In this document: piece by piece, positions 7,270-58,331 of the stretch | How positions within the stretch are numbered: position 1 is the stretch's first letter | How the letters are laid out: each line of letters begins with the position of its first letter | Origin: Escherichia coli | Lineage (GTDB): Bacteria > Pseudomonadota > Gammaproteobacteria > Enterobacterales > Enterobacteriaceae | Reading direction: 5' to 3' (one strand) | Length of the DNA: 64,000 nt | Assembly (NCBI RefSeq): GCF_024502345.1 | Contig: NZ_JALDNN010000002.1 | Made by a program: the position numbers and the translations under genes | The notes under the pieces: model-generated | What the model was told of the DNA's origin: nothing | Seen by the model: only the letters and a program-made list of their open reading frames with translations | The model's database searches: none

Positions 7270-7580
7270 GGTAGTATCAACCAGTTATGACCGCGTGAAG
7301 CAAAAAGTGGGGTGTAGTGGGAAGCCTTTGAATCTTCGGTGTGTCGAAGTGGGGAGTTGGTGAGACAAATTTGGTAAAAGGTGGGGAGAAGCTGGATTGC
7401 TTTTCACTTCTATCCAAAAAGGTGTGTTGAAGTGGGAAGGTGCGTAAGTATATACAGATAAAAACACACATTTAACAGGTTCTCATCCCGCTACAACACA
7501 CCTATTAAGACGTTTAAGGCGAGGCTTCCCCTTACAACACACCTATCAAAATGTTTAAGAAGAGAGCTCCCGTTTCAACA
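7270..7580. promoter_or_regulatory. iteron cluster downstream of repA (repeats containing ACAACACACCT/GGTGTGT)
   Basis: Multiple spaced repeats of aggtgtgttg / acaacacacct. Confidence 0.6.
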
Positions 7581-7584
7581 CACC

Positions 7585-8478
7585 TTATACAGCTGTTCCT
7601 GGTTTCAGATTTGCTGAGCGACGGTGGATCAGAATGAAAGTCTCTTTACCTTTTTTGGTGATGCTGTGGTCAAGGTACCCAATATCCTGCAACTGCTTGA
7701 GGGCCAGTTTAATGATACGGTTCTGTTCCTTTACCGGAGAGAGCAATGAGAGCCTGTCTCGTATTCGTTTGAAAGATATGGGGACTGGGTTCGTAGGCAG
7801 ACTTTCGATGAAAGTATACAGGGCCTGAGCTGCTTCCTTTCGGGTTAAAGCATTTATCGGCTTATGTCGTAGCAGAACAGTGTAATCAGTTTGGTAGAGT
7901 TCCCATAGTCGCTGATCAGCTTCAAGTTCCACCTGGTCGTTTGCAAAATCCAGTTCACCTGTCTTAAGCAAACCTGTTACGGAAACTTTTTGAAGGCCCT
8001 CTGAGTCGCTACGGGTAAAGGTAATGGTCTTGCCACGTATCCTGGTCAAAGCTTCTGAAATACTTTTTCTAAGACGGGAATCGAATCTCTTAGACTCAAA
8101 GCGGCACATTCCAGCAAACTCATGAAAAGTAAGCTTAATGCTGTTGGTTTTTAAACCGTACTTACTGAAAGCTTCTATGATACCGACCCATACCTTGAAG
8201 TCGATGGCCATACTCAACCGTTCACCGGTTATACGAATATCGTCGTAACCCTCCCGCCTTGAGAATTCCAAATCCTTGAGAACAGAGGTCGCATCGATTG
8301 ATGTTCTAGTGCCCTTTGCAGGCCTGCTTGAAGGAACAAAAACATTTAATCTCATCAGGGCTACAGGCTGAACTGTGGCCTTACTTGTGACGGTGAGTTT
8401 ATTGTTAACACTTTCACAATCTGGACCTATAACCTCGCCGATATAAACATTCTCATTCATATAGTTATATCCATTCAT
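7585..8478 (-). CDS. repA: replication initiator RepA (Rep_3 family, RepFIB-like)
   Basis: 297 aa; Rep_3-type sequence; iterons on both sides. Confidence 0.85.
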   Translation of the reverse strand: MNGYNYMNENVYIGEVIGPDCESVNNKLTVTSKATVQPVALMRLNVFVPSSRPAKGTRTSIDATSVLKDLEFSRREGYDDIRITGERLSMAIDFKVWVGIIEAFSKYGLKTNSIKLTFHEFAGMCRFESKRFDSRLRKSISEALTRIRGKTITFTRSDSEGLQKVSVTGLLKTGELDFANDQVELEADQRLWELYQTDYTVLLRHKPINALTRKEAAQALYTFIESLPTNPVPISFKRIRDRLSLLSPVKEQNRIIKLALKQLQDIGYLDHSITKKGKETFILIHRRSANLKPGTAV

Positions 8479-8504
8479 AGCATATGATCGATATGTGCCT
8501 AAAT

Positions 8505-8625
8505 ATTAACTCTTTCCCGTTTCGACACACCTTTCTTCCCGATTCTACCCACCCTTACCCCGTTTTGACACACCTTTTTCCCGCTTCAGAACACCTTTCT
8601 CCCACTACGACACACCTGAAATCGC
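8505..8625. promoter_or_regulatory. iteron cluster upstream of repA (GACACACCT repeats)
   Basis: cgacacacctttc...ttgacacaccttttt...cagaacacctttc...cgacacacctgaaa direct repeats. Confidence 0.65.
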
Positions 8626-8871
8626 TACGAAGCCCGTAAACAAAGGTTTTGCCGCTAAAGGGATCAGTTTGGATCTATTTGGATAACTAAGGGTAAATTA
8701 TTGGATCTACTCAAAGGATATGTGGATAACTCATTATGGAATCTATAGAACTTAAGTGCGTAAGGTGTTTTAAAAGGCTTCAGCTCCCCTGGTGCTTCCT
8801 CGCTCACTCGCGGGCTTCGCCCTGTCGTTCGGCTGCGGCGAGCACTGCTGGCTCTCTCTGAAAGGCAAAAT

Positions 8872-10143
8872 TTAACCGATCCTCGCAACGGGGATATCTC
8901 TCCAGCGAGTGGTGTACGCAGGGGAGAGCATATCGCGTTTCATTTGCCAGGATGGCACAATTCCTCTACCGGCAAACCATACTTTACCCAGCCCTGAGTT
9001 GTTGATCCCGTCCAGAACCCTCATCAGCTCAGCACTGTGAGGGCGTGGCGGGCGTTCGTCGAACAGCTGCAGCTGCGAAACGCCGGAGCCGGTGAAGTCA
9101 TTCAGCATAACTCCGGCTTTGGCATACCTGTGCCCATCCCTCCAGATACGCTCCAGAGCCGTTGTGGCGGCTGCAATGATGTCCCTGGTGTCCTGAGTGG
9201 GTGTAAGAAGTTTTTCCGTAGCCACGTTGCCGTAGTAAGGCTCTTTAACGGCGAACGGAGACGTTTTGATGAAAACGGAAATATGCCGGCAATACTGGTG
9301 CTCTTTACGCAGCTTTTCAGAGGCCCGCTCTGCGTGCTGACAGATAGCCTGACGGAGTGACTCGTACTCCGTGATCTTCACGCCAAAACTGCGGCTGCAG
9401 ACAATTTGCTGTTTCGTCGGAGGGGCTTCCTCAAGCGAAAGGCAGCTTTCCCCGTTCAGTTCCCGTACCGTTCGCTCAAGGACGACAGAAAAATTTTTGC
9501 GGATGAAGGCCGGGTTCGTCAGAGCCAGATCGAGCGCGGTCTTAATGCCCAGTACATTCAGCTTGCGTGCAATACGGTTACCCACCCCCCAGATTTCTTC
9601 AACCGGCTGCAGTGAAAGCAGTTTCCGCGTTCTCTGCGGATTTCCCCTGGTCAGAGCAAGTACGCCACGAAACTGTTTCCACTCTTTTGAGGCCCACTGG
9701 GCTGATTTTGCGAGGGTCTTCGTTGGCCCGGCGCCCACGCCAATGGTAAGGCGGGTACAGTCATACACGTGCTGACGCAGCTGCCGGCCGAAGTCCTCAA
9801 GCTCCATACAGTGCTCCACGCCGGTCAGGTCGAGGAACATCTCATCAATTGAATACTGTTCCACCCTGGGGGCCAGTTCCTCCAGGCTGTTCATCACGCG
9901 CGCCGACATCGAAGCATAAAGTTCATAGTTACTTGAAAACGCATATATTTTTTCCGGGTATCTTTCGTTTTTTATCTGAAACCACGGAGTTCCCATTTTG
10001 ATCCAGCGCTTCGCCTCGGCACTGCGAGCGATTACGTTCCCGTCGTTGTTGCTCAGGACGACTATCGGCTTTCCTTTCAAATCCGGTCGGAAAACACGTT
10101 CACAGCTGGCATAGAAGCTGTTCACATCGGCCAGGGCAAACAT
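8872..10143 (-). CDS. umuC: error-prone DNA polymerase V subunit UmuC (Y-family polymerase)
   Basis: 423 aa; [22 protein letters not shown]... N-terminus and Y-family polymerase motifs. Confidence 0.95.
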
Positions 10144-10574
10144 CAGTACATCTCCCTCGGGCGGTGGATGATATGCGTGACGACGCCAAAGATATCCAGC
10201 TCATCGGGGTCAGGATAAGTCGGCGACCAGGAGGCATTCATGGGCTGCAGCGTCAGTCGAGGCGTCAGCAGAAGCCGTTTAACCGTAAACTCCCCCTGTA
10301 CGCTGGCGACAACGATATCGCCGTGCCGCGGCTTTTCAGCACTGTCCACAACCAGCAGATCGCCATTGTACAGACTACCGTCCGCCATGCTGTCTCCGCT
10401 GGCACGCAGGTAGTACGTCGCGCTCGGATGCCGTATGCAGTAATCATGGAGATCCAGATCGGACTCGACATAGTCAGCGGCAGGGCTGGGAAAACCGCAG
10501 CTGGCCAGATCGGCAAACAATGGATGAGCCTGTGGCGGGTGTTCTTTCCCGGTGCTGAAAAGCTGTAGCTTCAT
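10143..10574 (-). CDS. umuD: UmuD (LexA-like self-cleaving peptidase S24)
   Basis: 143 aa from ATG at 10574 ([13 protein letters not shown]...), preceded by GGAGGA RBS; stop overlaps umuC start; the 270-aa track ORF is an upstream over-extension. Confidence 0.9.
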
Positions 10575-10597
10575 CTTTCCTCCTGATACTCTAATTT

Positions 10598-10617
10598 TAC
10601 TGGTTATGCATACAGTG
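10598..10617. promoter_or_regulatory. LexA (SOS) box TACTGGTTATGCATACAGTG
   Basis: CTG-N10-CAG core with one mismatch to consensus, about 25 bp upstream of umuD start. Confidence 0.7.
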
Positions 10618-12562
10618 TGCGCCGGGAGACCGGTAGAGATCAAGGGGTGAAAGTCCCCGACCATTGAAGGACCAGCAATCCACAAGGTCCCCGAGTCATG
10701 CGTTGCATACCGCGAGGTATGGGGCGAAGCGTTGACAGGGGTGTTGACAGGCCAGCCATTGAGCCACGAAATGTATATTAAATTACCGGGTGCCGACGTT
10801 GTACTGTTAACGGAAGGCAACATCATAGGGTGCGATACTGCGAGTGCCACATGGACCCGGCGGGGTCTGAGACCCTGGCATGTCAATACGATCTCTACGC
10901 GGGAACCGGGAGATCTCCCCTCTGACCATCTGCCAGTGTCGGAGATGGCCCGCACCGGGAAGACGAGGAGTCATAGCCGGTGATGTACGGAGAGGAGAAG
11001 TCGGACTCGCTCATAGTAGCGGCGAAGCAGGCGAACAACCCGAAAGGAGCGGAGTCAGTGGAGCGAAGGAGCGGGGCCAAGGGGAACGTGGAACAGCCAC
11101 ACATGCGCCGGACACAGAGCCGGGAAAGCATGTCACAGAGGCTGTCACGCGTGCGGGAAGCTGCGAAGCAGCGGAAGAAAGAACGGTTTACAGCATTGTT
11201 CCACCTGCTGACAGTCGAAGCACTGGAAGCCGCATTCCTCTCCCTGAGCAGGAAAGCGGCCGCCGGAGTGGATGGCATCAGGTGGATGGACTACGCCGGA
11301 AACATGAAGAACAACATAACAGATCTGCACCGGAGGCTACATCAGGGCAGCTACAGGGCGCAGCCCGGCAGGCGTCACTACATCCCAAAAGCGGATGGAA
11401 AACAACGCCCGCTCGGCATCGCCTCGCTGGAGGACAAGATCGTCCAGTATGCGCTGGTGAAAATCCTGAACGCAGTCTATGAAAACGACTTTATGGGGTT
11501 CTCATACGGGTTCAGACCCGGGCGAAGCCAGCACGATGCACTGGACGCACTGGCCACAGGGCTGGTACGCACTAACGTAAACTGGGTACTGGATGCCGAC
11601 ATCAGTCAGTTCTTCGACAGGGTGAGCCACGAATGGCTGATCAGGTTCACAGAGCATCGGATCGGCGACCGGAGCGTAATCAGGCTCATACGTAAGTGGC
11701 TCACAGCCGGGACGTTGGAGGAGGGTCAATGGCGAGCAACGGAGGAAGGCACCCCACAGGGTGCGGTCATCTCACCGCTGCTGGCAAACATATACCTCCA
11801 CTACGTCTTCGATCTGTGGGCGCATCAGTGGCGACGTCGCTATGCCACAGGCAATGTGGTAATGGTCAGATACGCCGATGACATCGTCATCGGGTTCGAC
11901 AAACGATACGATGCCCGGCGCTTCCGTATAGCCATGCAGCGCAGACTGAGGGAGTTCGGACTCACGGTTCACCCGGAGAAAACCCGTCTGATGGAGTTCG
12001 GCCGCTTCGCTGCCGAAAACCGTGCCATCAGGGGAAAAGGCAAACCAGAAACGTTCAACTTCCTCGGGTTCACGCACATCAGCGGGAAAGATCGCAACGG
12101 CAGGTTCATGCTGATACGAAAGACCCGCCGGGATCGGATGACGGCAACTCTGAAAGCCATCAAAGACGGTCTGCGAAGGCGCTGGCATTACTCAATCCCC
12201 GAACAGGGAAAATGGCTCAGGAGAGTGGTTCAGGGATACCTGAACTATCACTCGGTACCGGGCAACTTCCCCACCATGCAGAAGTTCAGGACACACGTAA
12301 CAAACCTCTGGCGCCGGGCGCTCAGGCGCAGGAGCCAGAAGGATGATACGACCTGGACGAAAGCAAACAAACTGGCAGCCGCATGGCTACCAAGGGTTCG
12401 GGTTCTTCATCCATGGCCTGTGGAGCGGTTCACCGCCAGACACCCGAGGCAGGAGCCCGGTGCGTAAATCGCGCACGCCGGGATCTGTGCGGGGGGTATC
12501 CGGTAACGGGTATCCCTACCGCGACATATTTAACAGCGTGACGATAATCCAGATCGCCTGCC
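10617..12562 (+). mobile_element. group II intron (bacterial, RT/maturase-encoding); 3' boundary approximate
   Basis: GTGCG at 10617-10621, about 360 bp structured leader, RT/maturase ORF, GNRA-loop hairpin near the 3' end; IS1 abuts at about 12563. Confidence 0.7.
10983..12467 (+). CDS. group II intron reverse transcriptase/maturase
   Basis: RT motifs incl. YADD (...MVRYADDIVIGF...), maturase domain, no endonuclease domain. Confidence 0.9.
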   Translation: MYGEEKSDSLIVAAKQANNPKGAESVERRSGAKGNVEQPHMRRTQSRESMSQRLSRVREAAKQRKKERFTALFHLLTVEALEAAFLSLSRKAAAGVDGIRWMDYAGNMKNNITDLHRRLHQGSYRAQPGRRHYIPKADGKQRPLGIASLEDKIVQYALVKILNAVYENDFMGFSYGFRPGRSQHDALDALATGLVRTNVNWVLDADISQFFDRVSHEWLIRFTEHRIGDRSVIRLIRKWLTAGTLEEGQWRATEEGTPQGAVISPLLANIYLHYVFDLWAHQWRRRYATGNVVMVRYADDIVIGFDKRYDARRFRIAMQRRLREFGLTVHPEKTRLMEFGRFAAENRAIRGKGKPETFNFLGFTHISGKDRNGRFMLIRKTRRDRMTATLKAIKDGLRRRWHYSIPEQGKWLRRVVQGYLNYHSVPGNFPTMQKFRTHVTNLWRRALRRRSQKDDTTWTKANKLAAAWLPRVRVLHPWPVERFTARHPRQEPGA

Positions 12563-12618
12563 GGATAATGGTGCCAACTTACTGATTTAGTGTACGATGG
12601 TGTCTTTGAGGTGCTCCA

Positions 12619-12894
12619 GTGGCTTCCATCTCCATCAGTTGTCCCTCCTGCTCAGCTACTGAAGGCGTGGTGCGTAACGGTAAAAGTACTGCCGGACATC
12701 AGCGCTATCTCTGCTCTCACTGCCGTAAAACATGGCAGCTACAGTTCACTTACACCGCCTCTCAGCCCGGTACGCACCAGAAAATCATTGATATGGCCAT
12801 GAATGGCGTTGGATGCCGGGCAACCGCCCGCATTATGGGCGTTGGCCTCAACACGATTTTACGTCACTTAAAAAACTCAGGCCGCAGTCGGTAA
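12619..12894 (+). CDS. insA: IS1 InsA
   Basis: [91 protein letters not shown]. Confidence 0.95.
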
Positions 12895-13316
12895 CCTCAC
12901 GCATACAACCGGGCAGTGACGTCATTGTCTGCGCGGAAATGGACGAACAGTGGGGCTACGTCGGGGCTAAATCACGTCAGCGCTGGTTATTTTACGCCTA
13001 TGGCAGGATGTGCAGGACGGTGGTGGCACGCGTCTTTGGTGAGCGTACTCTGGCCACGCTGGAGCGTCTTCCGGGCCTGCTGTCGGCCTTTGAGGTCGTG
13101 GTATGGATGACGGATGGCTGGCCGCTTTATGAATCCCGCCTGAAGGGAGAACTGCACGTTATCAGCAAGCGATATACGCAGCGAATTGAGCGGCATAACC
13201 AGAATCTGAGGCAGCATCTGGCAAGGCTGGGCAGGAAGTCACTGTCGTTCTCAAAATCGGTGGCGCTGCATGACAAAGTCATCGGGCATTATCTGAACAT
13301 AAAACACTATCAGTAA
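12813..13316 (+). CDS. insB: IS1 InsB (expressed as InsAB' by -1 frameshift)
   Basis: 167-aa ORF overlapping insA 3' end in -1 frame. Confidence 0.9.
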
Positions 13317-13331
13317 GTTGGAGTCATTACC

Positions 13332-13633
13332 AACCAGTTCACCACCTACTCGCTCCGCGATTGTGGCAGTCTTCGAAATCCCCGGACGATCCGCCTTTAT
13401 GAAAGTCTTGCTCAATTCAAATCTTCAGGCTTATGGGTTACTACTCATGCTTGGTTAAATGACCGTTTCGTCTTACCGGAATCCCAGCAGAAGAACTTGG
13501 CAGAGTTGAAACGATCTTTCCTTGATCCTGCACTCAAGCAGATAAATGAGAAAACACCTTTACTTGCTAAGTATAGTATTGATGATTCAGGAAAATTTCT
13601 GTTCTCAATAATTGATAAGCAAAATCCCGTCTG
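13332..13633 (+). pseudogene. 3' fragment of a replication-initiator-like gene, 5'-truncated by IS1
   Basis: Frame open from the IS1 end; ...TTYSLRDCGSLRNPRTIRLYESLAQF... resembles the Rep_3 motif; ends at stop 13631-13633. Confidence 0.4.
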
Positions 13634-13683
13634 ACATAAATCAGCACACATGAGCCTGTCATTTGACAAATTTTTGTCATGAA

Positions 13684-14183
13684 GATGGGCGGATTTCCAC
13701 ACAGCACCGGCGCCCGGTAAGGTGGGCGGATTCCCACACGGCACCGGCGCCCGGTAAGGTGGGCGGATTCCCACACGGCACCGGCGCCCGGTAAGGTGGG
13801 CGGATTCCCACACGGCACCGGCGCCCGGCAAGATGGGCGGATTTCCACACAGCACCGGCGCCCGGTAAGGTGGGCGGATTCCCACACGGCACCGGCGCCC
13901 GGTAAGGTGGGCGGATTCCCACACGGCACCGGCGCCCCGCAAGATGGGCGGATTTCCACACAGCACCGGCGCCCGGTAAGGTGGGCGGATTTCCACACAG
14001 CACCGGCGCGCGGCAAGGTGGGCGGATTTCCACACGGCACCGGCGCCCGGCAAGGTGGGCGGATTTCCACACAGCACCGGCGCCCGGCAAGGTGGGCGGA
14101 TTCCCACACGGCACCGGCGCGCGGCAAGGTGGGCGGATTCCCACACGGCACCGGCGCCCGGCAAGGCGGGCCGATTCCCATAT
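13684..14183. repeat. tandem array of about 13.5 copies of a 37-bp GC-rich repeat
   Basis: Contiguous units g[ga]tgggcggatt[tc]ccacac[ag]gcaccggcgc[cg]cgg[tc]aag with two alternating variants. Confidence 0.95.
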
Positions 14184-14406
14184 CGACATGTATGTAGCTT
14201 GTGTTATCTGTGGATTGTGCAGCTCAGCGGGTCGCTGGTCGTATGGCGGAGTGTCCCCCGTAACCGGCCGCGTGCGGCCGCTAACGCGCAGTACGGCGCC
14301 GCGTCCCGCAGGCGGGCCGCCGTTCCCGCGCGCAGCACTGCGCACCCCCGTGGGGGACGTGCGGCAGCTGCGTGGCGGTGACCGGCACGAACCGCATGTT
14401 AGGTCG

Positions 14407-14709
14407 AGTGACGGCTTCACAAATAGCTTCAGCGTCTGCAGCATCATGCTTATTGGTTTTAACATAGGGTTTGACGAACTGAGGGGCCATCAGTTTGACA
14501 TTATGGCCCATCGATATCAGTTTATTGGCCCAGAAATGAGCAGATGCACAGGCCTCCATGCCGATCAAACAGGGTGGGATGTTGGCAAAAAAGGAGGCCA
14601 TTTGTGCCCGTCTGAGTTGTTTGTTGAACAACCGTTTTCCGTGCTCGTCAACCCCATGGATCTGGAAAACGTTTTTTGCCAAATCGATTCCAATAGTTTT
14701 AACGTTCAT
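14407..14709 (-). pseudogene. IS110-family transposase N-terminal fragment
   Basis: MNVKTIGIDLAKNVFQIHGVDEHGK...; sequence then degenerates into GC-rich non-homologous frame. Confidence 0.7.
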
Positions 14710-14914
14710 GATAGCAGCGCTCCGTTCAATGAGTGACGATTTATCGTCCCACTGTGGCACAAGAGATGGGAGGCGACCATTCCATTAACAAAGCCGGTAT
14801 TTAGCCGTTGATGCGTCAATACCGTAGGTAAATTTAGCAACTAGAAACCATACCATTATTGGCGGCAAAGTAATTGCAAATAAAAATGCTAAGCCTCTTT
14901 CTCTATCGTCCATT

Positions 14915-15331
14915 TCAGCGCTCCTTTTTTGGTTCCCAGACTTTATAGCCGTTACGTTCAACCTCTGCTTTTGCCGCTTTGGTTTTACCCGGTTCTGCTA
15001 TCGAACGTAGGAGGATCAGCGTTTCAATAGCGAGTGATTCATGCAACATCATCTGTCCTGCCGGTGGGAATGTTACGCCAGATAGCGTTTCGGTTATTGC
15101 CTTCAGCTCATCGCGCAGTGAGCCAAAATCCGCATCTGAAGCACGGTCAAAAAGGTAATCCAGTTTGCGATTTACGTCGCTCAGCTGGTTGGTAACTATT
15201 TTCAACCCGGACTCCAGATCACCTGGGCCAGCTTCAAGGCAGCGCCGCAGATACTCTGACCGATTACCACCTGAAACCAGGTCTATATAGGCCAAAAGTT
15301 CATCTGATACTTTTGCGGTTATTGTTGGCAT
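14915..15331 (-). CDS. hypothetical protein with N-terminal ribbon-helix-helix-like segment
   Basis: 138 aa; MPTITAKVSDELLAYIDLV...RSEYLRRCLE pattern suggests RHH DNA binding; function unknown. Confidence 0.5.
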   Translation of the reverse strand: MPTITAKVSDELLAYIDLVSGGNRSEYLRRCLEAGPGDLESGLKIVTNQLSDVNRKLDYLFDRASDADFGSLRDELKAITETLSGVTFPPAGQMMLHESLAIETLILLRSIAEPGKTKAAKAEVERNGYKVWEPKKER

Positions 15332-15654
15332 TCAGTCCTCACTTTGTGCATTTTTTAAACGAAAAAAGGGTGTCTAATACGGTGAAATCATAGTATTACC
15401 AAAGTAATAAATAAAAAATTCTTTAAATCAGTAAGTTAGATTAGATTTGTAATACCTGGGTAATACCGCAGTATGGCTAAATTTGGTTTTTTTCTTTTAA
15501 ATCAGTGAGATAGCGTGATTTATCACGCTGCGTTAGGTGTATAGCAGGTTAAGGGATAAAAAATCATCTTTTTTTGGTAGGGCGATCTCCGTAGGTTAAG
15601 GGTCATTTGGCTAAAAAGCGTCCTATTCTTTGATGGTCATGCTTGCATGACCAT

Positions 15655-15830
15655 CTGAGCAACCAAAAACTACAGATAAACTACAGATAAACTACAAAAA
15701 ACGTTTTGCCTTAGTGTTGGGAGACTACAAATAGACTACAATAAAACTACAAATAAACTACAAATAAACTACAAAAAACGTGACAGACTACAAATAGACT
15801 ACAATAAAACTACAGATAAACTACAAAACT
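15655..15830. repeat. iteron-like array of about 14 direct repeats (ACTACA[AG]ATA[AG]A, 11-bp periodicity)
   Basis: aactacagataaactacagataaactacaaaaaacg...gactacaaatagactacaataaaactacaaataaactacaaataaa... Confidence 0.9.
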
Positions 15831-15886
15831 CGATTGACCCCTTCTTACGAGTGTTGTAGAGTCATTTTCATACAACGGAGGGGGTT

Positions 15887-16273
15887 ATGAATAAACCAGC
15901 AGATCTGAAACCCCGCAACTTATCGGCTGCTGTCAGATTGCGCCTAAATGAAATCGAGAACTGGCTGGACAGAGGGCTAACGCGGCATGAAATTGCTGAA
16001 ATCCTCGACAGCGAATACAGCTTTTCGGTAACAGCCAAAGGGCTTGAGATGGCACTGTATAGAACGCGGCAAAACCGAAAAAATGTATTGCACAATACAC
16101 ATGATAAGAGTAGCGCGAAGGGTGCAGCGGAAAGTGTATTGCACAATACACAACCGTCTGAGCCTGAAGCGCAGGAAAGTAAAAAAGCAGAGAGTCCCGG
16201 CATTATTGATAAAGAATTCTTCAAGAAAATCGGTGAGAATTTCGACCCTAAGAAGTTCAACAAAAAATTCTGA
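15887..16273 (+). CDS. hypothetical DNA-binding protein (candidate iteron-binding adaptor)
   Basis: 128 aa; GGGGG RBS; helix-turn-helix-like ...GLTRHEIAEIL...; directly downstream of the iteron array. Confidence 0.5.
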   Translation: MNKPADLKPRNLSAAVRLRLNEIENWLDRGLTRHEIAEILDSEYSFSVTAKGLEMALYRTRQNRKNVLHNTHDKSSAKGAAESVLHNTQPSEPEAQESKKAESPGIIDKEFFKKIGENFDPKKFNKKF

Positions 16274-16281
16274 GGTGATTT

Positions 16282-16468
16282 ATGAAAGTAGCGGTAATTA
16301 ATTACAGTGGCAGTGTTCGTAAAACCTTAATTTCATCTTACCTGTTAGCCCCGCGCCTGACTGGTGCAAAGTTCTATGCGGTAGAGACTATCAACCAGTC
16401 TGCTTCCGATCTGGGTATTGAAAATGTGACCAGTTTTAAAGGTGACGACTTCTCACGTTTGATTGAGG
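16282..16468 (+). pseudogene. N-terminal fragment of a possible actin-like (ParM-type) ATPase, 3'-truncated by IS1
   Basis: MKVAVINYSGSVRKTLISS... resembles the ParM N-terminus (MLVFIDDGSTNIKLQW); frame runs into IS1 at 16469. Confidence 0.35.
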
Positions 16469-17007
16469 GGTAATGACTCCAACTTACTGGTAGTGTTTTA
16501 TGTTCAGATAATGTCCAATGACTTTGTCATGCAGTTCTCCCTTCAGGCGTGATTCATAAAGCGGCCAGTCATCCGTCATCCATACCACGACCTCAAAGGC
16601 CGACAGCAGGCCCGGAAGACGCTCCAGCGTGGCCAACGTGCGTTCACCGAATACGTGCGCCACAACCGTCCTCCGTATCCTGTCATACGCGTAAAACAAC
16701 CAGCGCTGGCGTGATTTAGCGCCGACGTAACCCCACTGTTCGTCTATTTCCGCGCAAACAATGACGTCACTGCCCGGTTGTATGCGTGAGTTTACCGACT
16801 GCGGCCTGAGAGGCGGTGTAAGTGAACTGTAGCTGCCATGTTTTACGGCAGTGAGAGCAGAGATAGCGCTGATGTCCGGCAGTACTTTTACCGTTACGCA
16901 CCACGCCTTCAGTAGCTGAGCAGGAGGGACAAGTGATGGAGATGGAAGCCACTGGAGCACCTCAAAACCACCATCATACACTAAATCAGCAAGTTGGTAG
17001 CATTACC
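16469..17007 (-). mobile_element. IS1 copy b, internally deleted (539 bp)
   Basis: Both IS1 ends present; insA and insB carry internal deletions relative to copy a. Confidence 0.85.
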
Positions 17008-17279
17008 CAGAACTGGACAGAATAGGCTGTATGTCTAACTTCTGGCCACAGATATAATCGAGCCAGCAGTGCTCGCCGCAGCCGAGCGACAGGGCGAAGC
17101 CCCGAGTGAGCGAGGAAGCACCATGGAACAGTACTCATAAATTCTGCATACGCTCAATGCCTGCAAAATCACCTCCCATAGGGGTTATCCACTTATCCAC
17201 GGGGATATTTTTATAAGATCTTTTTAAATAGTTGTTAGATTTTTATTTTTAGAATGCCCACAGGCCTTTATCCATGCGG

Positions 17280-17400
17280 GTTCCAGAGAGGGATCTGTGA
17301 CAAAACGCCCTTTCAGTGTGACAAATCACCCTCAAATAGCCGCCATTTCTGTGACAAGTTGCCCTTAACCCTGTGACAAATTGCCCTCAGGAAGCGTTGC
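17280..17400. promoter_or_regulatory. F-type (RepFIA-like) iterons, orphaned: four TGTGACAA[AT]T.GCCCT repeats
   Basis: ctgtgacaaaacgccc / gtgtgacaaatcaccc / ctgtgacaagttgccc / ctgtgacaaattgccctcag at about 22-bp spacing; no rep gene adjacent. Confidence 0.65.
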
Positions 17401-17529
17401 TTTTCACAAAGTTATCCATCCCTGTTGACTCTGTTTTATGAAGTGTGACAATCTTAAAGTCTGTCACACTTCGCATGGACCTGTCATGGCGGAAATAGCG
17501 GTTATAAACCATAAAAAACGTAAAAATAG

Positions 17530-18446: not shown

Positions 18447-20583
<2,137 letters not shown>

Positions 20584-43577: not shown

Positions 43578-43771
43578 CCAACGCCATTCATGGCCATATC
43601 AATGATTTTCTGGTGCGTACCGGGTTGAGAAGCGGTGTAAGTGAACTGCAGTTGCCATGTTTTACGGCAGTGAGAGCAGAGATAGCGCTGATGTCCGGCA
43701 GTGCTTTTGCCGTTACGCACCACCCCGTCAGTAGCTGAACAGGAGGGACAGCTGATAGAAACAGAAGCCAC
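43496..43771 (-). CDS. insA: IS1 InsA
   Basis: 91-aa ORF identical to copy c. Confidence 0.95.
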
Positions 43772-43807
43772 TGGAGCACCTCAAAAACACCATCATACAC
43801 TAAATCA

Positions 43808-44805
<998 letters not shown>

Positions 44806-44830
44806 TTAGTTTGATCGACTTTAGCCATAT

Positions 44831-45633: not shown

Positions 45634-45954
45634 GCGGATTGTCCTTGCGCCAATACAATTGTACGAATCTTCTACATGAAATTAAGGTCTGGATTCTGAA
45701 GGATGAAAAGTAACTTTTGGAATTTTAATACTGCCGCTTTGAACCTTAAAACTAACCTTTCAGCCATTACCCATACTTGTAACACTTTTTAACCAAACTA
45801 ACCAGAATTTTATCAAAAAACCCTGACCTTGCTAACGAAATGTGAACCGTATAAAAAAACCTCAAAGCCTGAGTCGTTATCGGCATTAAGTAGCAATAAC
45901 CTTAGGGAAAAATGCGCGTAAGCATGATTATTTTTTCGATTGTTTAACATGACT

Positions 45955-46130
45955 ACTACATAGGGTCACTTTTTGCTGAAAAGTGGCCCTATGCACCATC
46001 GACATAGGGTCACTTCTTGATGAAAAGTGACCCTATGTAATCACGACATAGGGTCACTTTTTTTAAAAGTGGCACTATGCGTCAAAATCATAGGGTCACT
46101 TTCCTTTAAAAAGTGGCACTAGATAGATGT
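45955..46130. repeat. array of four imperfect ~35-bp palindromes (CATAGGGTCACTTTT ... AAAAGTGaCCCTATG) at about 44-bp spacing
   Basis: Directly visible; lies between the divergent 267-aa gene and the 46389 operon. Confidence 0.9.
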
Positions 46131-46388
46131 ATAACTTAGTAGGTAAAACAGTTCTTTTCAGATCACGATCTCAGCAATAAGCATTGCTGGAAAAGTTACT
46201 TTTCTTCCACGATAAAATGCGGACCTTTTGGCCGTTCCCGTTTACATCTGATGTCACTCACTCTCAGTGCTTCCTCCATTCTTAAATTTGCCATGCAAAA
46301 TTCTCGAAAAAATTCACAGAAAAAAGTCCCGTTCGTGAAAAAAAATTGAAAATCACTTCGGTATAGTGATTTCACATCAGGAGGCCCC

Positions 46389-46874
46389 ATGTCTAAATCG
46401 AAGCTATTAAAGTCATTAGAGATTTCACGTACTTTATTGCGCTCACAAATCGATGTTCTTCGAGAAGAGGCTGAAGAACTGATCACCAATTATTGGATCG
46501 AGTGGAAAGAACGGAATCACATTGAGAGGAATTTACCCAGGGATAGCAAAACTCTAAAGAAGGAGTATCTGGGTTCATATGCACCAAAAGTTGAGCTAAT
46601 TGGTAATGCCAGGAAAGTCACCATTACCTGGCATCAGTTTAGCCCGTATAAAAACAGGCCACCTAGTCACATGTCGAAACGGATTTCACCGATGAAAAGT
46701 GGAAAATATACGAAAAGCTGCTTTGTTAATCATGCCAGCTGGGAATATGAAATGATTGAAAAAACGGAGGGATTACTGGAACCCTACAGAGAATTACTTG
46801 AGTTCTACCATGCTGCATATATCGAACTGGGACGAAAAGTCCGTCAATACTCAAAATCAGAGGTGGCACAATGA
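46389..46874 (+). CDS. hypothetical protein (161 aa)
   Basis: AGGAGG RBS 7 bp upstream; no recognised family. Confidence 0.6.
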   Translation: MSKSKLLKSLEISRTLLRSQIDVLREEAEELITNYWIEWKERNHIERNLPRDSKTLKKEYLGSYAPKVELIGNARKVTITWHQFSPYKNRPPSHMSKRISPMKSGKYTKSCFVNHASWEYEMIEKTEGLLEPYRELLEFYHAAYIELGRKVRQYSKSEVAQ

Positions 46875-47189
46875 CCGATGTAACAATGAATGAAAGCGAG
46901 CATAAGGTACCTGACGTAAATACCCGCTCCCCTCATGCGTCCGATAATAGCCGTAGGGTCGTGCAAAGTAAAAATGAACATTACGGCATGGCTACAGTAA
47001 CTATTACCCCAGGCACGCCAGACTTTAACCGATTTCTCACGGCACGTAATCGTTCCGTAATAAGAGGGTTTGATGATGTCAGTATTGCCATTTCATCCTT
47101 ATTCAGAACGGTCAATGCAGTTAAGCACCCCGAACTAGTGCAGGCAATTCAAGACTGGTTCAATGAATTGCACGAAGAAAATAATCTAA
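46871..47189 (+). CDS. hypothetical protein, 3' end disrupted or capped by ISKpn26 copy E
   Basis: Start overlaps upstream stop (ATGA); frame runs into the IS left end at 47190. Confidence 0.5.
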
Positions 47190-48385
<1,196 letters not shown>

Positions 48386-52419: not shown

Positions 52420-53239
52420 GGCACTGTTGCAAAGTTAGCGATGAGGCAGCCTTTTGTCTTATTCAAAGGCCTTACATTTCAAAAACTCTGCTTACCAGGC
52501 GCATTTCGCCCAGGGGATCACCATAATAAAATGCTGAGGCCTGGCCTTTGCGTAGTGCACGCATCACCTCAATACCTTTGATGGTGGCGTAAGCCGTCTT
52601 CATGGATTTAAATCCCAGCGTGGCGTCGATTATCCGTTTCAGTTTGCCATGATCGCATTCAATCACGTTGTTCCGGTACTTAATCTGTCGGTGTTCAACG
52701 TCAGACGGGCACCGGCCTTCGCGTTTGAGCAGAGCAAGCGCGCGACCATAGGCGGGCGCTTTATCCGTGTTGATGAATCGCGGGATCTGCCACTTCTTCA
52801 CGTTGTTGAGGATTTTACCCAGAAACCGGTATGCAGCTTTGCTGTTACGACGGGAGGAGAGATAAAAATCGACAGTGCGGCCCCGGCTGTCGACGGCCCG
52901 GTACAGATACGCCCAGCGGCCATTGACCTTCACGTAGGTTTCATCCATGTGCCACGGGCAAAGATCGGAAGGGTTACGCCAGTACCAGCGCAGCCGTTTT
53001 TCAATTTCAGGCGCATAACGCTGAACCCAGCGGTAAATCGTGGAGTGATCGACATTCACTCCGCGTTCAGCCAGCATCTCCTGCAGCTCACGGTAACTGA
53101 TGCCGTATTTGCAGTACCAGCGTACGGCCCACAGAATGATGTCACGCTGAAAATGCCGGCCTTTGAATGGGTTCATGTGCAGCTCCATCAGCAAAAGGGG
53201 ATGATAAGTTTATCACCACCGACTATTTGCAACAGTGCC
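52420..53239 (-). mobile_element. IS26 copy 3 (820 bp), transposase variant, no TSD
   Basis: 14-bp IRs; flanks tggcgtcg vs gcgagaag. Confidence 0.97.
52472..53176 (-). CDS. tnpA: IS26 transposase variant (M58I, G184D relative to copies 1 and 2)
   Basis: ...[10 protein letters not shown]... and ...[10 protein letters not shown]... versus ...APEMEK... / ...KRIIGATLGF... Confidence 0.95.
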
Positions 53240-54471
53240 GCGAGAAGGTTTTCAGGCCGGATTTGCGCGGCAAACCTGTCGTCGTTCTCAGTAACAACGA
53301 TGGCTGCGTTATTGCCCGGAGTGCTGAAGCCAAACGGCTGGGTATAAAGATGGGAACCCCCTGGTTCCAGCTCAAAGAGGCGCAGTTTCCTGAAAAATTG
53401 TACGTTTTTTCCAGCAACTACGAGCTCTACGCGAGCCTGAGTAACCGTGTGGTCGCCCTGCTGGAAGAGCTGTCGCCCCGCGTCGAACAATACTCAATTG
53501 ACGAATGTTTCCTGGATGCCCGGGGAATTGGCCACTGTATGGATCTGGAGGATTTTGGCAGGCAGCTGCGTGGGCATGTTCTCAGTGGAACCGGACTGAC
53601 GATCGGTGTCGGCTTCGGCGCCACAAAAACACTGGCCAAATCGGCGCAGTGGGCGTCAAAGGAATGGCCACAATTCAGTGGGGTGCTGGCGCTGTCGCCC
53701 GAAAATCCACGCAGAACGGCAAAATTACTCAGCCTGCAGCCGGTGGAAGAAATCTGGGGCGTAGGGAACCGGATAGCGAAAAAGCTGCACGTTATGGGGA
53801 TCACCACTGCCCTGCAGCTGTCGCTGACGAACCCTACATTTATCCGGAAAAACTTCAACGTAGTGCTGGAGCGCACGGTACGTGAGCTGAACGGCGAGAG
53901 CTGCATTTCGCTGGAGGAAGCGCCGCCGCCGAAACAGCAGATTGTCTGCAGTCGCAGCTTCGGGCAGCGGATCACCACCTACGAAGAAATGCGCCAGGCC
54001 GTCTGCCAGTATGCCGAGCGCGCGGCGGAAAAGTTGCGCGGTGAGCGACAGTACTGCCGGCATATCAGCACCTTCATCAAGACATCCCCTTTTGCGGTTA
54101 ATGAGCCGTATTACGGTAACGTGGCCACGGAAAAACTGAACACCCCTACCCGTGACACCCGGGACATTATCGCGGCAGCGGTCAGGTCTCTGGACAGGAT
54201 CTGGCTCGATGGCCACCGCTACGCAAAAGCGGGGATAATGCTCAATGATTTCAGTCCGAACGGCGTCGCGCAGCTGAATCTGTTCGATGACGTGCAGCCA
54301 CGGCCGCACAGCGATGCGCTGATGAAGGTACTCGACGGCATTAATCATTCCGGACTCGGGAAAGTCTGGTTTGCCGGACGGGGTATTGCGCTGGACTGGC
54401 AGATGAAACGGGAGATGCTGTCACCGGCATATACCACCCGCTGGAAGGAGCTGCCGGTTGCCCGTTTCTGA
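53240..54471 (+). pseudogene. umuC: second UmuC-family Y-polymerase gene, 5'-truncated by IS26 (no umuD partner)
   Basis: Reading resumes at ...[20 protein letters not shown]... right at the IS26 end; about 16 N-terminal codons missing. Confidence 0.9.
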
Positions 54472-54549
54472 CCGTCGAAATGACAGACGGGACTTGCCGC
54501 AAGAGCTTACTTTACCGATCATACAGATGACTTGTCTCAGGGGGGAACC

Positions 54550-54801
54550 ATGACAAATATCATTCTGTGTGATGTGACTGCCAGCATCAGCGAACTTAAA
54601 AACGATCCGGTGGCCACCGCCAGTGCCGGCGGCGGCTACCCGGTCGCGATTATTGACCGCAACCGCCCTGTTTTTTATTGTGTGCCCGCGGCTCTGTATG
54701 AACAAATGCTCGATGCGCTGGACGAAAAAGACCTGGTGCAATTGATAACAGAACGTCAAAACCAGCCGCTGCGTGAAGTGGATCTCAATCAGTATCTGTG
54801 A
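54550..54801 (+). CDS. type II antitoxin-like protein (Phd/YefM/YafN family)
   Basis: ...TASISELKNDPVATA...PVAIIDRNRPVFYCVPAALYEQMLDALDE... resembles YafN/Phd from memory. Confidence 0.6.
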   Translation: MTNIILCDVTASISELKNDPVATASAGGGYPVAIIDRNRPVFYCVPAALYEQMLDALDEKDLVQLITERQNQPLREVDLNQYL

Positions 54802-54854
54802 TGTGCTCCGGTGCGAGGAGCAAGGAATGTATTAAATCAATGTTAAGGAACAAT

Positions 54855-55160
54855 ATGGGTAGCAAAATCGCAGGTGTGGTTTTCTTATTCTTCACTGTCT
54901 GGGGAATGGCTTCAGTGATTGAATTGCAGTACTGGCGTAACGCTGATACCTATCCTGTCTGGCTGACAAAACATCTCCGGATCTCTCCCGAAAATAACGA
55001 AAAGAGCCTGATAAGGATAGGAATGGAAACCTTTGACAAGGTATGTGGTGATAACAGGGGCCTCCTTGCCGTCACCCAAAAACAAAACGGTATGTTTATG
55101 CGCTGTGATGATTCCCCCGGATTTTTTTCATGGTTCAGCGGCGTTTACAAAGTCAGTTAA
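54855..55160 (+). CDS. small protein with N-terminal hydrophobic segment (101 aa), unknown function
   Basis: ATG 54855 with AAGGAA RBS; MGSKIAGVVFLFFTVWGMASV...; not RelE/ParE/YafO-like. Confidence 0.45.
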   Translation: MGSKIAGVVFLFFTVWGMASVIELQYWRNADTYPVWLTKHLRISPENNEKSLIRIGMETFDKVCGDNRGLLAVTQKQNGMFMRCDDSPGFFSWFSGVYKVS

Positions 55161-55633
55161 TCAGATAACGTGTTGGACTTTCAATATGTTACCCACACGG
55201 TTATCCCCCGTTACTGTGGATAATCAATATATTGTGTCTCAGACAGCTGCTTTTTCTACCATATGTTGTGTCCCTGATATCCCCTCGGACGGCGTGACAA
55301 ACGACATCATACTGGAGACGCTGATGACGGGACCATGTTCATCCAGGGTCGTAAGAACGGCCGGGACTGGTTACCGGCCGGACGAAGGACCGGCCAACGC
55401 GCAGCGGCGGCAGCTGGTTTTAAAAATGCTGGCGGAAATTTAAAATTAAGCCGCACACCCCGCGAAATTTTGCAAATTTCACTCAACATGCTTCGTTCAG
55501 ATCCCAACAGAGCTTTCACCATCACCTGTAATAGCCGCCCTGCTGCGTGATTACTCCGCTCAACAAGTTGCTGGCGACAAGCCAATACCTGTTCGTGACA
55601 GGCATTGCTTAACCGTTGTCCCAAACTAATAAT

Positions 55634-56100
55634 GTGCCGACGATGCAGGTGGGACCGTGGTCCCAGGCAGATTACCTGACCGACGATGCAGGTGGGACCG
55701 TGGTCCCAGGCAGATTACCTGACCGATGACGCAGGTGGGACCGTGGTCCCAGACAGATAACCTGACCGACGACGCAGGTGGGACCGTGGTCCCAGACAGA
55801 TTACCTGACCGATGACGCAGGTGGGACCGTGGTCCCAGACAGATAAGCTGACCGATGACGCAGGTGGGACCGTGGTCCCAGGCAGATAACCTGACCGACG
55901 ACGCAGGTGGGACCGTGGTCCCAGTCAGATAACCTGACCGATGACGCAGGTGGGACCGTGGTCCCAGACAGATTACCTGACCGACGACGCAGGTGGGACC
56001 GTGGTCCCAGGCAGATAACCTGACCGATGACGCAGGTGAGACCGTGGTCCCAGGCAGATAACCTGACAGACGATGCAGGTGGGACCGTGGTCCCAGAGAG
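55634..56100. repeat. sopC: sopC-type centromere: about 11 tandem 43-bp repeats each with TGGGACCGTGGTCCCA inverted repeat
   Basis: Tandem units ...cgatgcaggtgggaccgtggtcccaggcagattacctgacc... Confidence 0.9.
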
Positions 56101-56184
56101 AATATTCAGGCCAGTTATGTTTTCTGGCCTGTGAGAAAGGAAATGAAGTAAAGGGAGATAACCGTAGACTAAAGCGTGTCCGCA

Positions 56185-57156
56185 TTAGACTCCTGGTTTC
56201 TCAAGCTCCTTAAGAATGGCTTCTATTTTCTCTATACACTCCGCAGGAATGCGGGACCGATCTAGGTTAAGCACTATTTTATCGCCCTTATACAATGCTG
56301 TTGCCCCTGGAGCAAACTGATGACGTGAACTCAGATTAACTCTTGATGCGCGAGATTGTTTCAGTACGGATGTTAAAAGACTAATGACCTCTTCAGCTTC
56401 AAAGATTAGTCCCGCTTTCTTCTGATCGTGGAGAGTCTCAGCCTGCTGCTTCAGTAATTCTTCTTTATCTGCAAAAGCCTTCTGAAGGGCTTCACCTGAC
56501 CGGGCAGACAGTTCTCCAGGATGTGCAAACAGGGCAACAACTGATTTAGGCAGTTTGGCCGTATTGATACAGCGGGTAATGATCTTACGAGAGATGTTTT
56601 CCGCATCGGCAAGCGCAGAAATATTTCCGGCAAACTCATTCTGCAGCCGGCTTGTATAACGCAGGCCACGTTCATAAGCACTCGTCGGCCGATAATCGTT
56701 ACCCAGCCGGGACAATGCAGCCATCTGCTCGTCGTCCAGTTCACCAACCAGAATGCGATAATCACTTTCCGTCAGGATTGCGGCTTTACGGCGACGGCTG
56801 CCGTCTGCAATTTCTATGACATCAGAAACCCAGCGGCCGAAAGCTGGAGTCTGCTGACCGGTCAGTAAAAATGAAGGTATGAGATCATCCAGAGCATCTT
56901 CGGTAAGTAGTTCCTGATCACGCTCATTTCCTGACCATACGCGTGAGGCGCTCTCAACAGACTCTCCCCGGAGCACCTCAAGGGTAAATTTTACTTCCCG
57001 TCCACATACCGGAAGAGAGATAGCATTACCGCGGGCCATAGCACCCACGCGCGCAATTAATGAATCCACCATCGGCGCGGCCGGCGCCGGTGATGAAGTA
57101 TCTTCAGTCGATTGAGTATGTGTGGTATGCCTTGGAATGACAGGGGCACGCTTCAT
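56185..57156 (-). CDS. sopB: partition protein SopB (ParB family)
   Basis: 323 aa matching F-plasmid SopB from memory. Confidence 0.95.
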
Positions 57157-58331
57157 TATCTAATCTCCCAGCGTGGTTTAATCAGACGATCAAAAATCTC
57201 ATTACAAACAGGTTCCCAGATTGAAAGTGCGTTTCGCCATGCGCCGGTCGAAGAACGTTGATCAATCGCCTGTTCGAAAACGGTTCTCATGCGGATCTGG
57301 CCTTTACCAACTTCATCGGTTTCACGTACCACATTTTTAAGAACCATGCTTCCCCATGCATCGCGAATTTGTTCTTCCATCCACGGTGACTGCGAACCAT
57401 TGTTATTACTGTATTTGGTAAGCAGAATACGGACATCCGGCTCAAAGCCTTTAAGATCCACATTCCTGAGCAGATCACGAAGCATATCGAAAAACTGCAG
57501 TGCAGAAGTGTAATCGAACAGCTCTGCCGGGGTGGGAACAATCAGCACATCAGCAGCGCATACGACATTGATCGTGCCAATACCGAGGTTCGGTGCGCTG
57601 TCGATAACAATCACATCATAGTCATGAGCGACCGTTTCAATAGCAAGGCGGAGCATCAGATGCGGGTCGGTGGGCAGTTTTCCTTCATCAAATTTGCCCA
57701 TCAGTTCAGTTTCAATGCGATGCAGTGCCAGGCAGGACGGAATGATATCAAGGCCAGGCCAGCAGGTTGGTTTTATCGCATAACTGGCATCATCCTTTTC
57801 ACCAAGATAAAAGGGCAGGAGAGTATCTTCCGCGTGTATATGAAGATCGGGCACCCATCCGTGATACATCGAGGCTGTGCCCTGAGGATCATTACCCTCG
57901 ACAAGCAGAACGCGTAATCCTTTCAGGGCCAGGTCCTGAGCCAGGTGAACAGAAACGGAGGTTTTGTAAACACCACCTTTGTGAGCAGCAACACCAATCA
58001 CCGGCGGAAACGCATCTTCAGCACGGCGCAGTCGTGTACCAAATACATCCCGCATGTGATTGATTTGCTCGATGGTATAACCAACGCGTTGCTCAACTCT
58101 TCCACGGGTTTCCATATCAGGGTGAGGCAGCCGGCCAGCTTTCTCGGCATCCCTGATAGCCTGAGATGACACGCCAACTAAATCAGCTGCTTCACCAATC
58201 CTCCAGCGCCGGGTTATTTTCCGGGCTTCCGGACTGTCATCATTAAACTGCGCAATGGCGATTGCTTTCGTCATTTCATGACCAGCACTTATGCACTGGT
58301 TGAGTGTATCCATGAGTCCCATACTGAACAT
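57156..58331 (-). CDS. sopA: partition ATPase SopA (ParA type Ia)
   Basis: 391 aa; Walker A ...[10 protein letters not shown]...; near-identical to F SopA as recalled. Confidence 0.95.

Follow-up and report, generated by a model that had tools for sequence, protein, structure and literature searches.

Overall organisation of the window

The 64,000-nucleotide stretch of Escherichia coli DNA analysed here (contig NZ_JALDNN010000002.1 of assembly GCF_024502345.1; hereafter "the window") carries determinants of plasmid replication, partition and mobilisation from at least four replicon lineages: i) a RepFIB-family replicon typed by MOB-suite as rep_cluster_1418, with an I-complex-like partition (par) cassette; ii) incompatibility (Inc) group IncN; iii) IncFIA; and iv) IncFIB(K). 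In addition, there is a fragment bearing a gene of the mobI(A/C) family. The window is very probably part of a multi-replicon plasmid of the Klebsiella/E. coli type, built from pieces of these lineages by recombination mediated by insertion sequences (IS). Two maintenance modules, rep_cluster_1418 with parAG (module A) and IncFIB(K) with sopABC (module B), are apparently intact. The IncN and IncFIA replicons, whose initiator genes have been cut, are dead.

BLAST searches of PLSDB and complete E. coli genomes revealed that the window is similar, in mosaic fashion, to thousands of plasmids of Klebsiella, Escherichia and Enterobacter, with many sub-blocks 95-100% identical to known plasmids; the best single record in either collection covered at most 56% of a 24-kb piece. 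What was observed directly comprises identities, truncation points, repeat counts and synteny. A sequence-only reading of the same DNA had listed five determinants (a Rep_3-type repA with iterons, a truncated second rep-like gene, F-type iterons lacking a rep gene, a small ParA/ParG-like locus and a complete sopABC locus). All five are present and correspond to known families, but the list omits the array of 13.5 IncN repeats of 37 bp, the traK-oriT-stbA module and the IncFIB(K) origin.

Module A: a RepFIB-family replicon distinct from IncFIB

The replicon of module A consists of the following features:

7585-8460, minus strand: Rep_3 initiator gene (rep) of the RepFIB family, MOB-suite rep_cluster_1418, intact (Pfam match, RepFIB identity, match to NZ_CP017452)
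7337-7585: iterons downstream of rep, three of them gene-oriented and spaced by 41 bp (7486-7585), and two or more in inverted orientation
8515-8729: probable rep_cluster_1418 origin, with four to five iterons, three GATC sites (8662-8704) and a DnaA box TGTGGATAA (8721-8729)

The open reading frame (ORF) of rep extends to 8478 on the minus strand, while the NCBI-annotated start in homologs corresponds to 8460. Its product matched the Pfam domain PF01051 (Rep3_N; 27.1 bits, cut-off 22.4) and shared 47-48% amino-acid identity over ~270 residues with RepFIB of F and with RepB of IncFIB(K) (E=1e-75). The iteron motif AGGTGTGTCGAARNGGGA was found in nine copies, versus 0.17 expected by chance, all of them within 7337-8617: four copies, probably five, are located 5' of rep (8515-8617), and the inverted iterons downstream of the gene are at 7337-7354 and 7420-7437, giving a total of about 10 iterons on both sides of the gene. 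The Rep_3-type repA with flanking iterons was thus correctly recognised from sequence alone. The three GATC sites and the DnaA box lie beyond the upstream iterons. In the mechanism we propose, the initiator would bind the ~10 iterons that surround rep and open the neighbouring origin with its DnaA box and GATC sites.

The replicon resembles the RepFIB basic replicon (F/P307; the IncFIB(K) RepB, e.g., in pKPX-1) in having a Rep_3 initiator of 47-48% identity, iterons flanking the gene on both sides, and a DnaA box and GATC sites beside the upstream iterons. However, it differs in iteron consensus (AGGTGTGTCGAAACGGGA around the window rep versus TTGACTGYGATATGCAT in FIB(K)) and in its MOB-suite type, which is rep_cluster_1418 and not IncFIB. 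The rep at 7585-8460 therefore falls outside IncFIB, as its iterons differ from those of FIB(K) and its carriers are typed as rep_cluster_1418 separately from IncFIB. Iterons of the FIB(K) type do occur in the window, but beside sopA and at the window end rather than around this gene. When iterons were compared with reference origins, the F-type assignment held (the iterons are within an 85% alignment to F ori2), but the Rep_3 iterons were not FIB-type. Moreover, rep_cluster_1418 and IncFIB(K) share one molecule, both in the window and in pKPX-1; because of this coexistence we assign the window rep, on sequence grounds, to a separate replicon type that is a relative of RepFIB and not a member of IncFIB.

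The block ccdB-resD-parG-parA-rep-umuCD is also found in the Klebsiella sp. plasmid NZ_CP017452 (89.5 kb, conjugative), whose only MOB-suite type is rep_cluster_1418. Rep, ParA and ParG are 100% identical to their NZ_CP017452 counterparts, and the gene order is equal. From this identity, together with the typing of NZ_CP017452 by rep_cluster_1418 alone, we infer that the replicon can maintain a plasmid by itself. In the literature, rep_cluster_1418 is a common, Inc-untyped Klebsiella replicon which occurs alone or with IncFIB, IncFII, IncFIA, IncR or IncC.

Module A: the partition cassette

Next to the replicon is a compact partition cassette, preceded by a recombinase gene:

4865-5659, plus strand: resD-like tyrosine recombinase gene, probable multimer resolution (NCBIfam Xer-type recombinase matches)
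6034-6082: six tandem 8-bp repeats (AACAAGAT/GATAACAA) downstream of the par operon, candidate centromere array
6083-6385, minus strand: gene of a ParG-like partner protein, 100 residues
6382-7008, minus strand: gene of a small Walker-type ParA, ParF-like, type Ib partition ATPase, 208 residues
7166-7192: 3.4 copies of the 8-bp repeat upstream of parA, candidate operator/centromere

The resD-like gene opens the conserved block resD-parG-parA-rep-umuCD; it is 79% identical in nucleotide sequence to resD of F, and in NZ_CP017452 it has a counterpart of 99.6% amino-acid identity in the same synteny. ParA matched ParF of TP228 (4dzz) over its full length (E=2e-14). The downstream array scored 6.1 copies with 100% match in Tandem Repeats Finder (TRF), and gave seven overlapping 16-mer matches versus 0.02 expected. 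A 27-bp perfect palindrome (ATTAAGTTGTTAAGTTAACAACTTAAT) at ~7019-7046, beside the parA start, is conserved and is another candidate operator or centromere. The small ParA/ParG-like locus with AACAAGAT repeats was thus found as claimed (six and 3.4 copies), but it lies at 6034-7192, to the left of position 7270 where the sequence-only reading had placed the start of the mosaic.

The partner protein matched nothing in Pfam, NCBIfam or PDB sequence searches. By alignment it has a conserved N-terminal tail (MRNRANTP..FINGG) and a C-terminal strand-helix-helix pattern, and among its 165 homologs some are named ribbon-helix-helix (RHH) or Par-like by their source. Its AlphaFold2 model contains helices at residues 47-64, 71-83 and 87-99 with moderate confidence (predicted local distance difference test score, pLDDT, 73), and the top Foldseek match of that model, the RHH antitoxin ParD, was not significant (E=1.6).

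The same cassette, with the same arrays, is present in IncK2/Z, IncI-gamma/K1 and IncFIA/FIB plasmids, with 4-9 copies of the repeat downstream and 3-7 upstream; across five plasmids the arrays are kept on both sides of the operon while their copy number varies. This conservation supports the arrays as functional cis sites and as candidate centromeres. Compared with IncK2/Z, IncI-gamma/K1, IncF and Klebsiella plasmids (L008, L011, L012 and L013), the cassette (6034-7192) is bounded exactly by its two 8-bp arrays.

Among known systems, the cassette resembles type Ib ParF/ParG/parH of TP228 in its small deviant-Walker ParA, which is ParF-similar over the full length and has no N-terminal DNA-binding domain, and it shares with both TP228 and the I-complex parA-parB cassette (IncI/K/B/O/Z) a small partner gene after parA and short flanking repeats. 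Identity to the I-complex cassette in IncK2/Z and IncI-gamma/K1 plasmids is 98% for ParA and 83% for the partner. On the other hand, the partner has no detectable sequence similarity to ParG, its RHH fold is unconfirmed, and the arrays stand on both sides of the operon. The ParF-like ATPase and its small partner would segregate plasmid copies via the flanking 8-bp arrays.

Module B: sopABC joined to an IncFIB(K) origin

The right end of the window holds a second partition locus and the two parts of a split origin:

55612-56104, minus strand: sopC, the centromere, formed by 43-bp units in 11 copies; ten carry an exact F SopB box TGGGACCACGGTCCCA and one a box with a single mismatch
56185-57156, minus strand: sopB, ParB-type centromere-binding protein, intact (NF010252)
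57156-58322, minus strand: sopA, type Ia ParA ATPase, intact (NF010259)
58460-58720: iteron-like repeats of the IncFIB(K) type, the distal set between sopA and repB; collinearity with pKPX-1 extends to 58795
58796-63718: 4.9-kb insertion, an IS3-family element with nested IS421 and group II intron (Pfam and Rfam matches)
63719-64000, plus strand: proximal part of the IncFIB(K) origin/promoter, with a GATC cluster (63763-63859), iterons (63882-63964) and a DnaA box (63978-63986)

SopA matched the NF010259 equivalog at 866 bits (cut-off 725) and is 97.7% identical in amino-acid sequence to SopA of F and 100% to that of pKPX-1; SopB matched NF010252 at 623 bits (cut-off 274) and is 88.5% identical to SopB of F and 98.1% to that of pKPX-1. 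With SopA, SopB and 43-bp sopC repeats carrying the SopB-box inverted repeat, the locus is a SopABC system of type Ia, and the complete sopA-sopB-sopC locus proposed from sequence alone is borne out. The sopC of F has 12 units. The locus resembles F sopABC in both proteins and in its 43-bp repeat with the same 16-bp SopB box, but is linked to a divergently oriented IncFIB(K) repB, as in pKPX-1, rather than to repE/incC.

In pKPX-1, sopA and IncFIB(K) repB face one another, and the 752 bp between them are contiguous across the insertion point of the window. Here the insertion splits this intergenic region at 58795/63719, with a 5-bp overlap at the junction, and FIB(K)-type iteron-like repeats flank it (58625, 58646, 58702, 63883 and 63949). 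Over 53635-64000 the E. coli plasmid NZ_CP073626 (L002) matches the window at 99.99% identity, with its repB beginning at the equivalent of 64002, 2 bp past the window end. Because FIB(K)-type iterons adjoin both sopA and the window end, and given the position of repB in NZ_CP073626, sequence comparison places the sop locus in an IncFIB(K) replicon whose repB would be just outside the window. In this module sopC, sopB and sopA share a strand and face repB; SopB would load on the 11 F-type boxes.

The group II intron inside this IS3-family insertion comprises a reverse transcriptase gene (61755-63113) and an Rfam match (63117-63203); it is the second such intron in the window. Beyond sopC, on the side away from sopB, are two small ORFs (54532-55160) with no Pfam match; the homolog of the first in NZ_CP073626 is annotated as a "plasmid stabilization protein", and the two may be a toxin-antitoxin or stability pair of the IncFIB(K) backbone.

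Dead IncN and IncFIA replicons

Remains of two further replicons are located between the modules:

12563-13331, plus strand: IS1 copy whose right end truncates IncN repA (Pfam DDE_Tnp_IS1; IS1 terminal repeat ends at 13331)
13326-13634, plus strand: 3' remnant of IncN repA, codons 138-239 of 239, non-functional (tblastn)
13682-14180: orphan IncN iteron array, 13.5 copies of 37 bp (TRF score 823)
17061-17485, plus strand: orphan IncFIA ori2, with DnaA boxes, an AT-rich stretch, incB iterons and the repE operator
17486-17529, plus strand: repE stub, the first 14 codons and 2 nt (44 nt), truncated by an IS3-family element whose end is at 17530

For IncN, the plasmid NZ_CP036363 (typed IncN) served as reference. 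Residues 138-239 of the 239 of IncN RepA are encoded at 13326-13631 (98% identity, E=5e-65 by tblastn), the remnant beginning directly at the right end of IS1 (13331), and the 37-bp units are near-identical to the iterons of NZ_CP036363. Thus the truncated second rep-like gene of the sequence-only reading is IncN repA, cut by IS1. In comparison with the IncN basic replicon (pCU1/R46 type), the iterons and the RepA C-terminus are kept, whereas the first 137 repA codons and everything upstream are replaced by IS1; the iteron array of an IncN replicon is present and an intact repA is not. The IS1-cut repA with iterons also occurs in an Enterobacter plasmid, and 37-bp IncN iterons together with a delta-repA-iteron IncN remnant have been described inside an IncHI2 multi-replicon plasmid (PMC6288184).

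For IncFIA, the 469-bp stretch 17061-17529 is 85% identical to ori2 of F and 98.5% identical to a Klebsiella pneumoniae IncFIA replicon, i.e., closer to the latter. As in F, it contains two tandem DnaA boxes (17185-17200, starting at 17185 and 17193), four 19-bp incB iterons including an exact CCTGTGACAAATTGCCCTCAG, and the inverted repeat of the repE operator (17442-17470). The four copies of the iteron motif TGTGACAAANNRCCCT lie at 17296-17387 and nowhere else in the window (0.87 expected). The difference from F is that only 44 nt of repE are left and the incC iterons are missing: no further repE sequence, incC iterons or other F-type iterons were found in the window by tblastn with RepE and by iteron motif count. 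The ori2 cis elements of IncFIA are therefore retained, and an intact repE with downstream incC iterons is missing. F-type iterons had been described as lacking a rep gene; the four iterons are indeed there, within ori2, but the 44-nt repE stub remains.

Each of the 15 best PLSDB matches breaks off precisely at the repE/IS3 junction, and those whose annotation was inspected list an intact repE; NZ_CP034659 does not share the junction either. Because the 15 best matches end there, the truncation of repE is suggested to be lineage-specific and recent. With IncN repA and IncFIA repE truncated and Rep, ParA, ParG, SopA and SopB of the other modules 98-100% identical to those of known plasmids, the earlier view that several replicon types are combined, only some of them intact, is upheld.

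An IncN-like traK-oriT-stbA module

Between the two dead replicons, behind an IS110-family fragment (14379-14799), lies an IncN-like module of mobilisation and stability functions:

14915-15331, minus strand: IncN-like traK, relaxosome accessory (93% amino-acid identity and same position in NZ_CP036363; "traK protein" in L001)
15486-15620: IncN-type core of the transfer origin (oriT), ~95% identical to the IncN traK-stbA intergenic core
15668-15829: twelve stbS-like direct repeats, (A/G)ACTACA(A/G)NNA, with an 11-bp period in arrays of 3+5+4, candidate StbA site
15887-16273, plus strand: stbA, intact, 128 residues (50% identity to IncN StbA, E=2e-43)
16282-16468, plus strand: stbB', truncated after 62 codons by an IS1 remnant (95% identity to residues 1-62 of the 238 of IncN StbB)

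The IS1 remnant occupies 16469-17007 and has its terminal repeat at 16469. The window yielded no relaxase gene. StbA is 97.7% identical to the product of a gene annotated stbA in L001; relative to IncN StbA, its C-terminus is conserved and its N-terminus divergent, the changes being concentrated in the N-terminal DNA-binding half. With a StbA homolog (compared with IncN StbA), 12 upstream repeats of 11-bp period, an adjacent oriT and IncN synteny, the module belongs to the StbA/stbS systems of the R388/IncN type. It shares with R388/IncN stbABC the gene order traK-oriT-repeats-stbA-stbB and the 11-bp-period arrays upstream of stbA. On the other hand, the repeat sequences differ (ACTACAAAT in the window, TACATCAA in IncN and TTGCATCAT in R388), StbA is only 50% identical to that of IncN, stbB is truncated and stbC is absent from the window. 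In R388, stbS is formed by 9-bp repeats with 2-bp spacers in two arrays, and StbA with these arrays, and without need of StbB, suffices for plasmid stability (10.1101/2022.04.29.490116). Because StbA and stbS, not StbB, stabilise R388, the stbA/stbS module may by analogy still position the plasmid. The traK-oriT-stbS-stbA module would thus add a third possible positioning system and a mobilisation site.

Alignment of 15332-16273 with L006 (36594-37503) revealed that StbA (50%) stands within surroundings that are 93-95% IncN-identical (TraK, oriT core and StbB N-terminus). The upstream 11-bp repeats are also changed, from (G/T)TACATCAA to ACTACA(A/G)AT, so that at the sequence level StbA and its sites look like a co-diverged pair, i.e., a specificity swap. 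The 11-bp ACTACAAATAA repeats had also been considered as an R1-type parC, which was rejected as the adjacent gene is stbA in IncN synteny. A PDB sequence search with StbA returned a spurious bS20 match only.

Orphan sites and incompatibility

Iteron plasmids are controlled by titration and handcuffing, and both the F incB and the IncN repeats express incompatibility. By analogy, it is plausible that the orphan iterons in the window could destabilise incoming IncFIA or IncN plasmids. They would act only as binding sites, which titrate or handcuff the IncN RepA or RepE of a co-resident plasmid and thereby cause incompatibility; alternatively, ori2 might fire with RepE supplied in trans.

It has to be weighed whether the IncN iterons, the IncFIA ori2 and the IncN-type oriT are decay products at all, or sites kept by selection that exclude IncN and IncFIA competitors by initiator titration, or that make use of RepE or of an IncN relaxase provided in trans, so that the plasmid replicates or is transferred. 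The trans genes are cut, yet the cis parts are strikingly complete: ori2 still has its two DnaA boxes, all four iterons and the operator, the IncN array retains 13.5 near-perfect units, and the oriT core is ~95% IncN-identical beside an intact traK; moreover, the IS1-cut IncN repA with iterons persists in other plasmids, including that of PMC6288184. However, recent IS events and neutral hitch-hiking explain this persistence equally well, and the finding that none of the 15 best PLSDB matches crosses the repE/IS3 junction suggests a recent, lineage-specific event. We therefore consider retention by selection unlikely.

Origin of the mosaic

The sequence-only reading had proposed a cointegrate history. 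A single cointegration of two plasmids (e.g., one F-like and one of the Rep_3 type) followed by decay would place several replicons and two complete partition loci on one molecule, and the truncated rep genes suggest the loss of redundant functions. However, i) at least four replicon lineages are present, plus the mobI(A/C)-family fragment; ii) the fragments are short and bounded by termini or pieces of IS elements (IS1, IS110, IS3 and ISKpn26); and iii) the same mosaic blocks were found again in many other plasmids, where the sub-blocks are already combined with different partners (L001, L014 and pKPX-1), which points to stepwise IS shuffling of mosaic blocks. Because of these three lines of evidence, a two-plasmid cointegrate is improbable and the proposed history too simple.

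That the arrangement is partly an assembly artefact, the contig being chimeric across repeated IS copies, is suggested by the many such copies in the window (three of IS1 plus a remnant, four of ISKpn26, three of IS26 and two of IS30) and by the 56% ceiling on coverage of any 24-kb piece by any plasmid or E. coli record, but is very improbable, as several junctions lie inside 3-10 kb blocks that run collinearly with complete plasmids (L002 over 53635-64000, 99.99%; L001 over 14796-17529, 98.5%) and the truncations coincide exactly with IS termini, the pattern expected of genuine transposition or deletion.

Assembly by IS-mediated recombination from at least four lineages, with two intact maintenance modules, is thus the reading we favour. 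Several points nevertheless weigh against parts of it: i) the exact arrangement has no counterpart in PLSDB or the complete E. coli genomes that would confirm it independently, given the same coverage limit; ii) promoters, copy-number control and the replication and partition activity of the intact modules, as well as any incompatibility, are deduced from intactness and from identity to other plasmids; iii) NZ_CP017452 could hold a further replicon that MOB-suite cannot type; iv) ParA scored 153 bits against NF041546 (ParA_partition), under the cut-off of 180; v) the name "ParG-like" for the 100-residue partner is provisional, because of its moderate pLDDT and non-significant fold match, the RHH fold being unconfirmed; vi) the integrity of the IncFIB(K) replicon is extrapolated from L002, as repB is outside the window; and vii) with an IS insertion 282 bp ahead of its repB, this replicon might be impaired.

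IS-built mosaics of this kind are common and well documented, and the window does not represent a new kind of system. It opens no new biological question; its value is a precise map, which shows the modules that probably maintain the plasmid (rep_cluster_1418 with parAG, and IncFIB(K) with sopABC) and is useful for the epidemiology of Klebsiella/E. coli resistance plasmids. Plasmid typing with markers based on rep genes would overlook the IncFIA ori2 and might count the IncN repA remnant in error, and it is blind to cis sites that could cause incompatibility or mobilisation in trans.

Remainder of the window

The rest of the window was scanned with Pfam and NCBIfam on ~50 ORFs and by tblastn with RepE, RepFIB, SopA/B and ParA. 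The large ORFs of 18-55 kb yielded no additional rep or par gene; this region contains IS elements, type I restriction-modification and GmrSD genes, a sucrose operon, a Tn3-family transposase and a second umuC. Rfam identified no replication-control RNAs in the window, only group II introns and an IS3 frameshift pseudoknot, and the window has no tRNAs.

The mobI-bearing fragment of 2.4 kb (44810-47183) is flanked by ISKpn26 copies and is 100% identical in IncFIA/FIB E. coli plasmids, e.g., pECO-6357. An interpretation of 44831-47236 as IncC backbone was dropped, as the identical fragment is found in IncFIA/FIB plasmids; another group of matches, with 60-80% identity, may represent the true IncC plasmids. 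A 275-residue ORF within it matched no family and was not rep-like (Pfam, NCBIfam and tblastn). The mobI(A/C)-family gene (46389-46874) is preceded, ~270 bp upstream, by four 44-bp units (45958-46121), each with a ~36-bp palindrome (ACATAGGGTCACTTTT..AAAAGTGGCCCTATG). The oriT of IncA/C has been mapped immediately upstream of mobI (PMC5587640).

Two umuC-type Y-family polymerase genes were found (in the regions 8872-12560 and 53167-54471). The first is accompanied by umuD (ORF 10143-10955) and by a group II intron beside or inside the 5' region of umuD, with an Rfam domain match at 10650-10875 and ltrA at 10980-12467.

A set of sucrose utilisation genes (35356-41919), comprising a PfkB kinase, a LamB-type porin, an enzyme IIBC of the phosphotransferase system, a glycoside hydrolase of family 32 (GH32) and a LacI-family regulator, is bordered by IS26 on the left (33949-34770) and by two tandem IS1 copies on the right (42288-43826). 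Two IS30-family transposase genes in inverted orientation (18509-19660 and 23385-24536), with identical Pfam HTH_38 and rve scores, bracket IS3 fragments and a GmrSD-type restriction gene. The hsdR gene appears to be split into an N-terminal piece (23081-23434) and the remainder of the gene (24619-27396).

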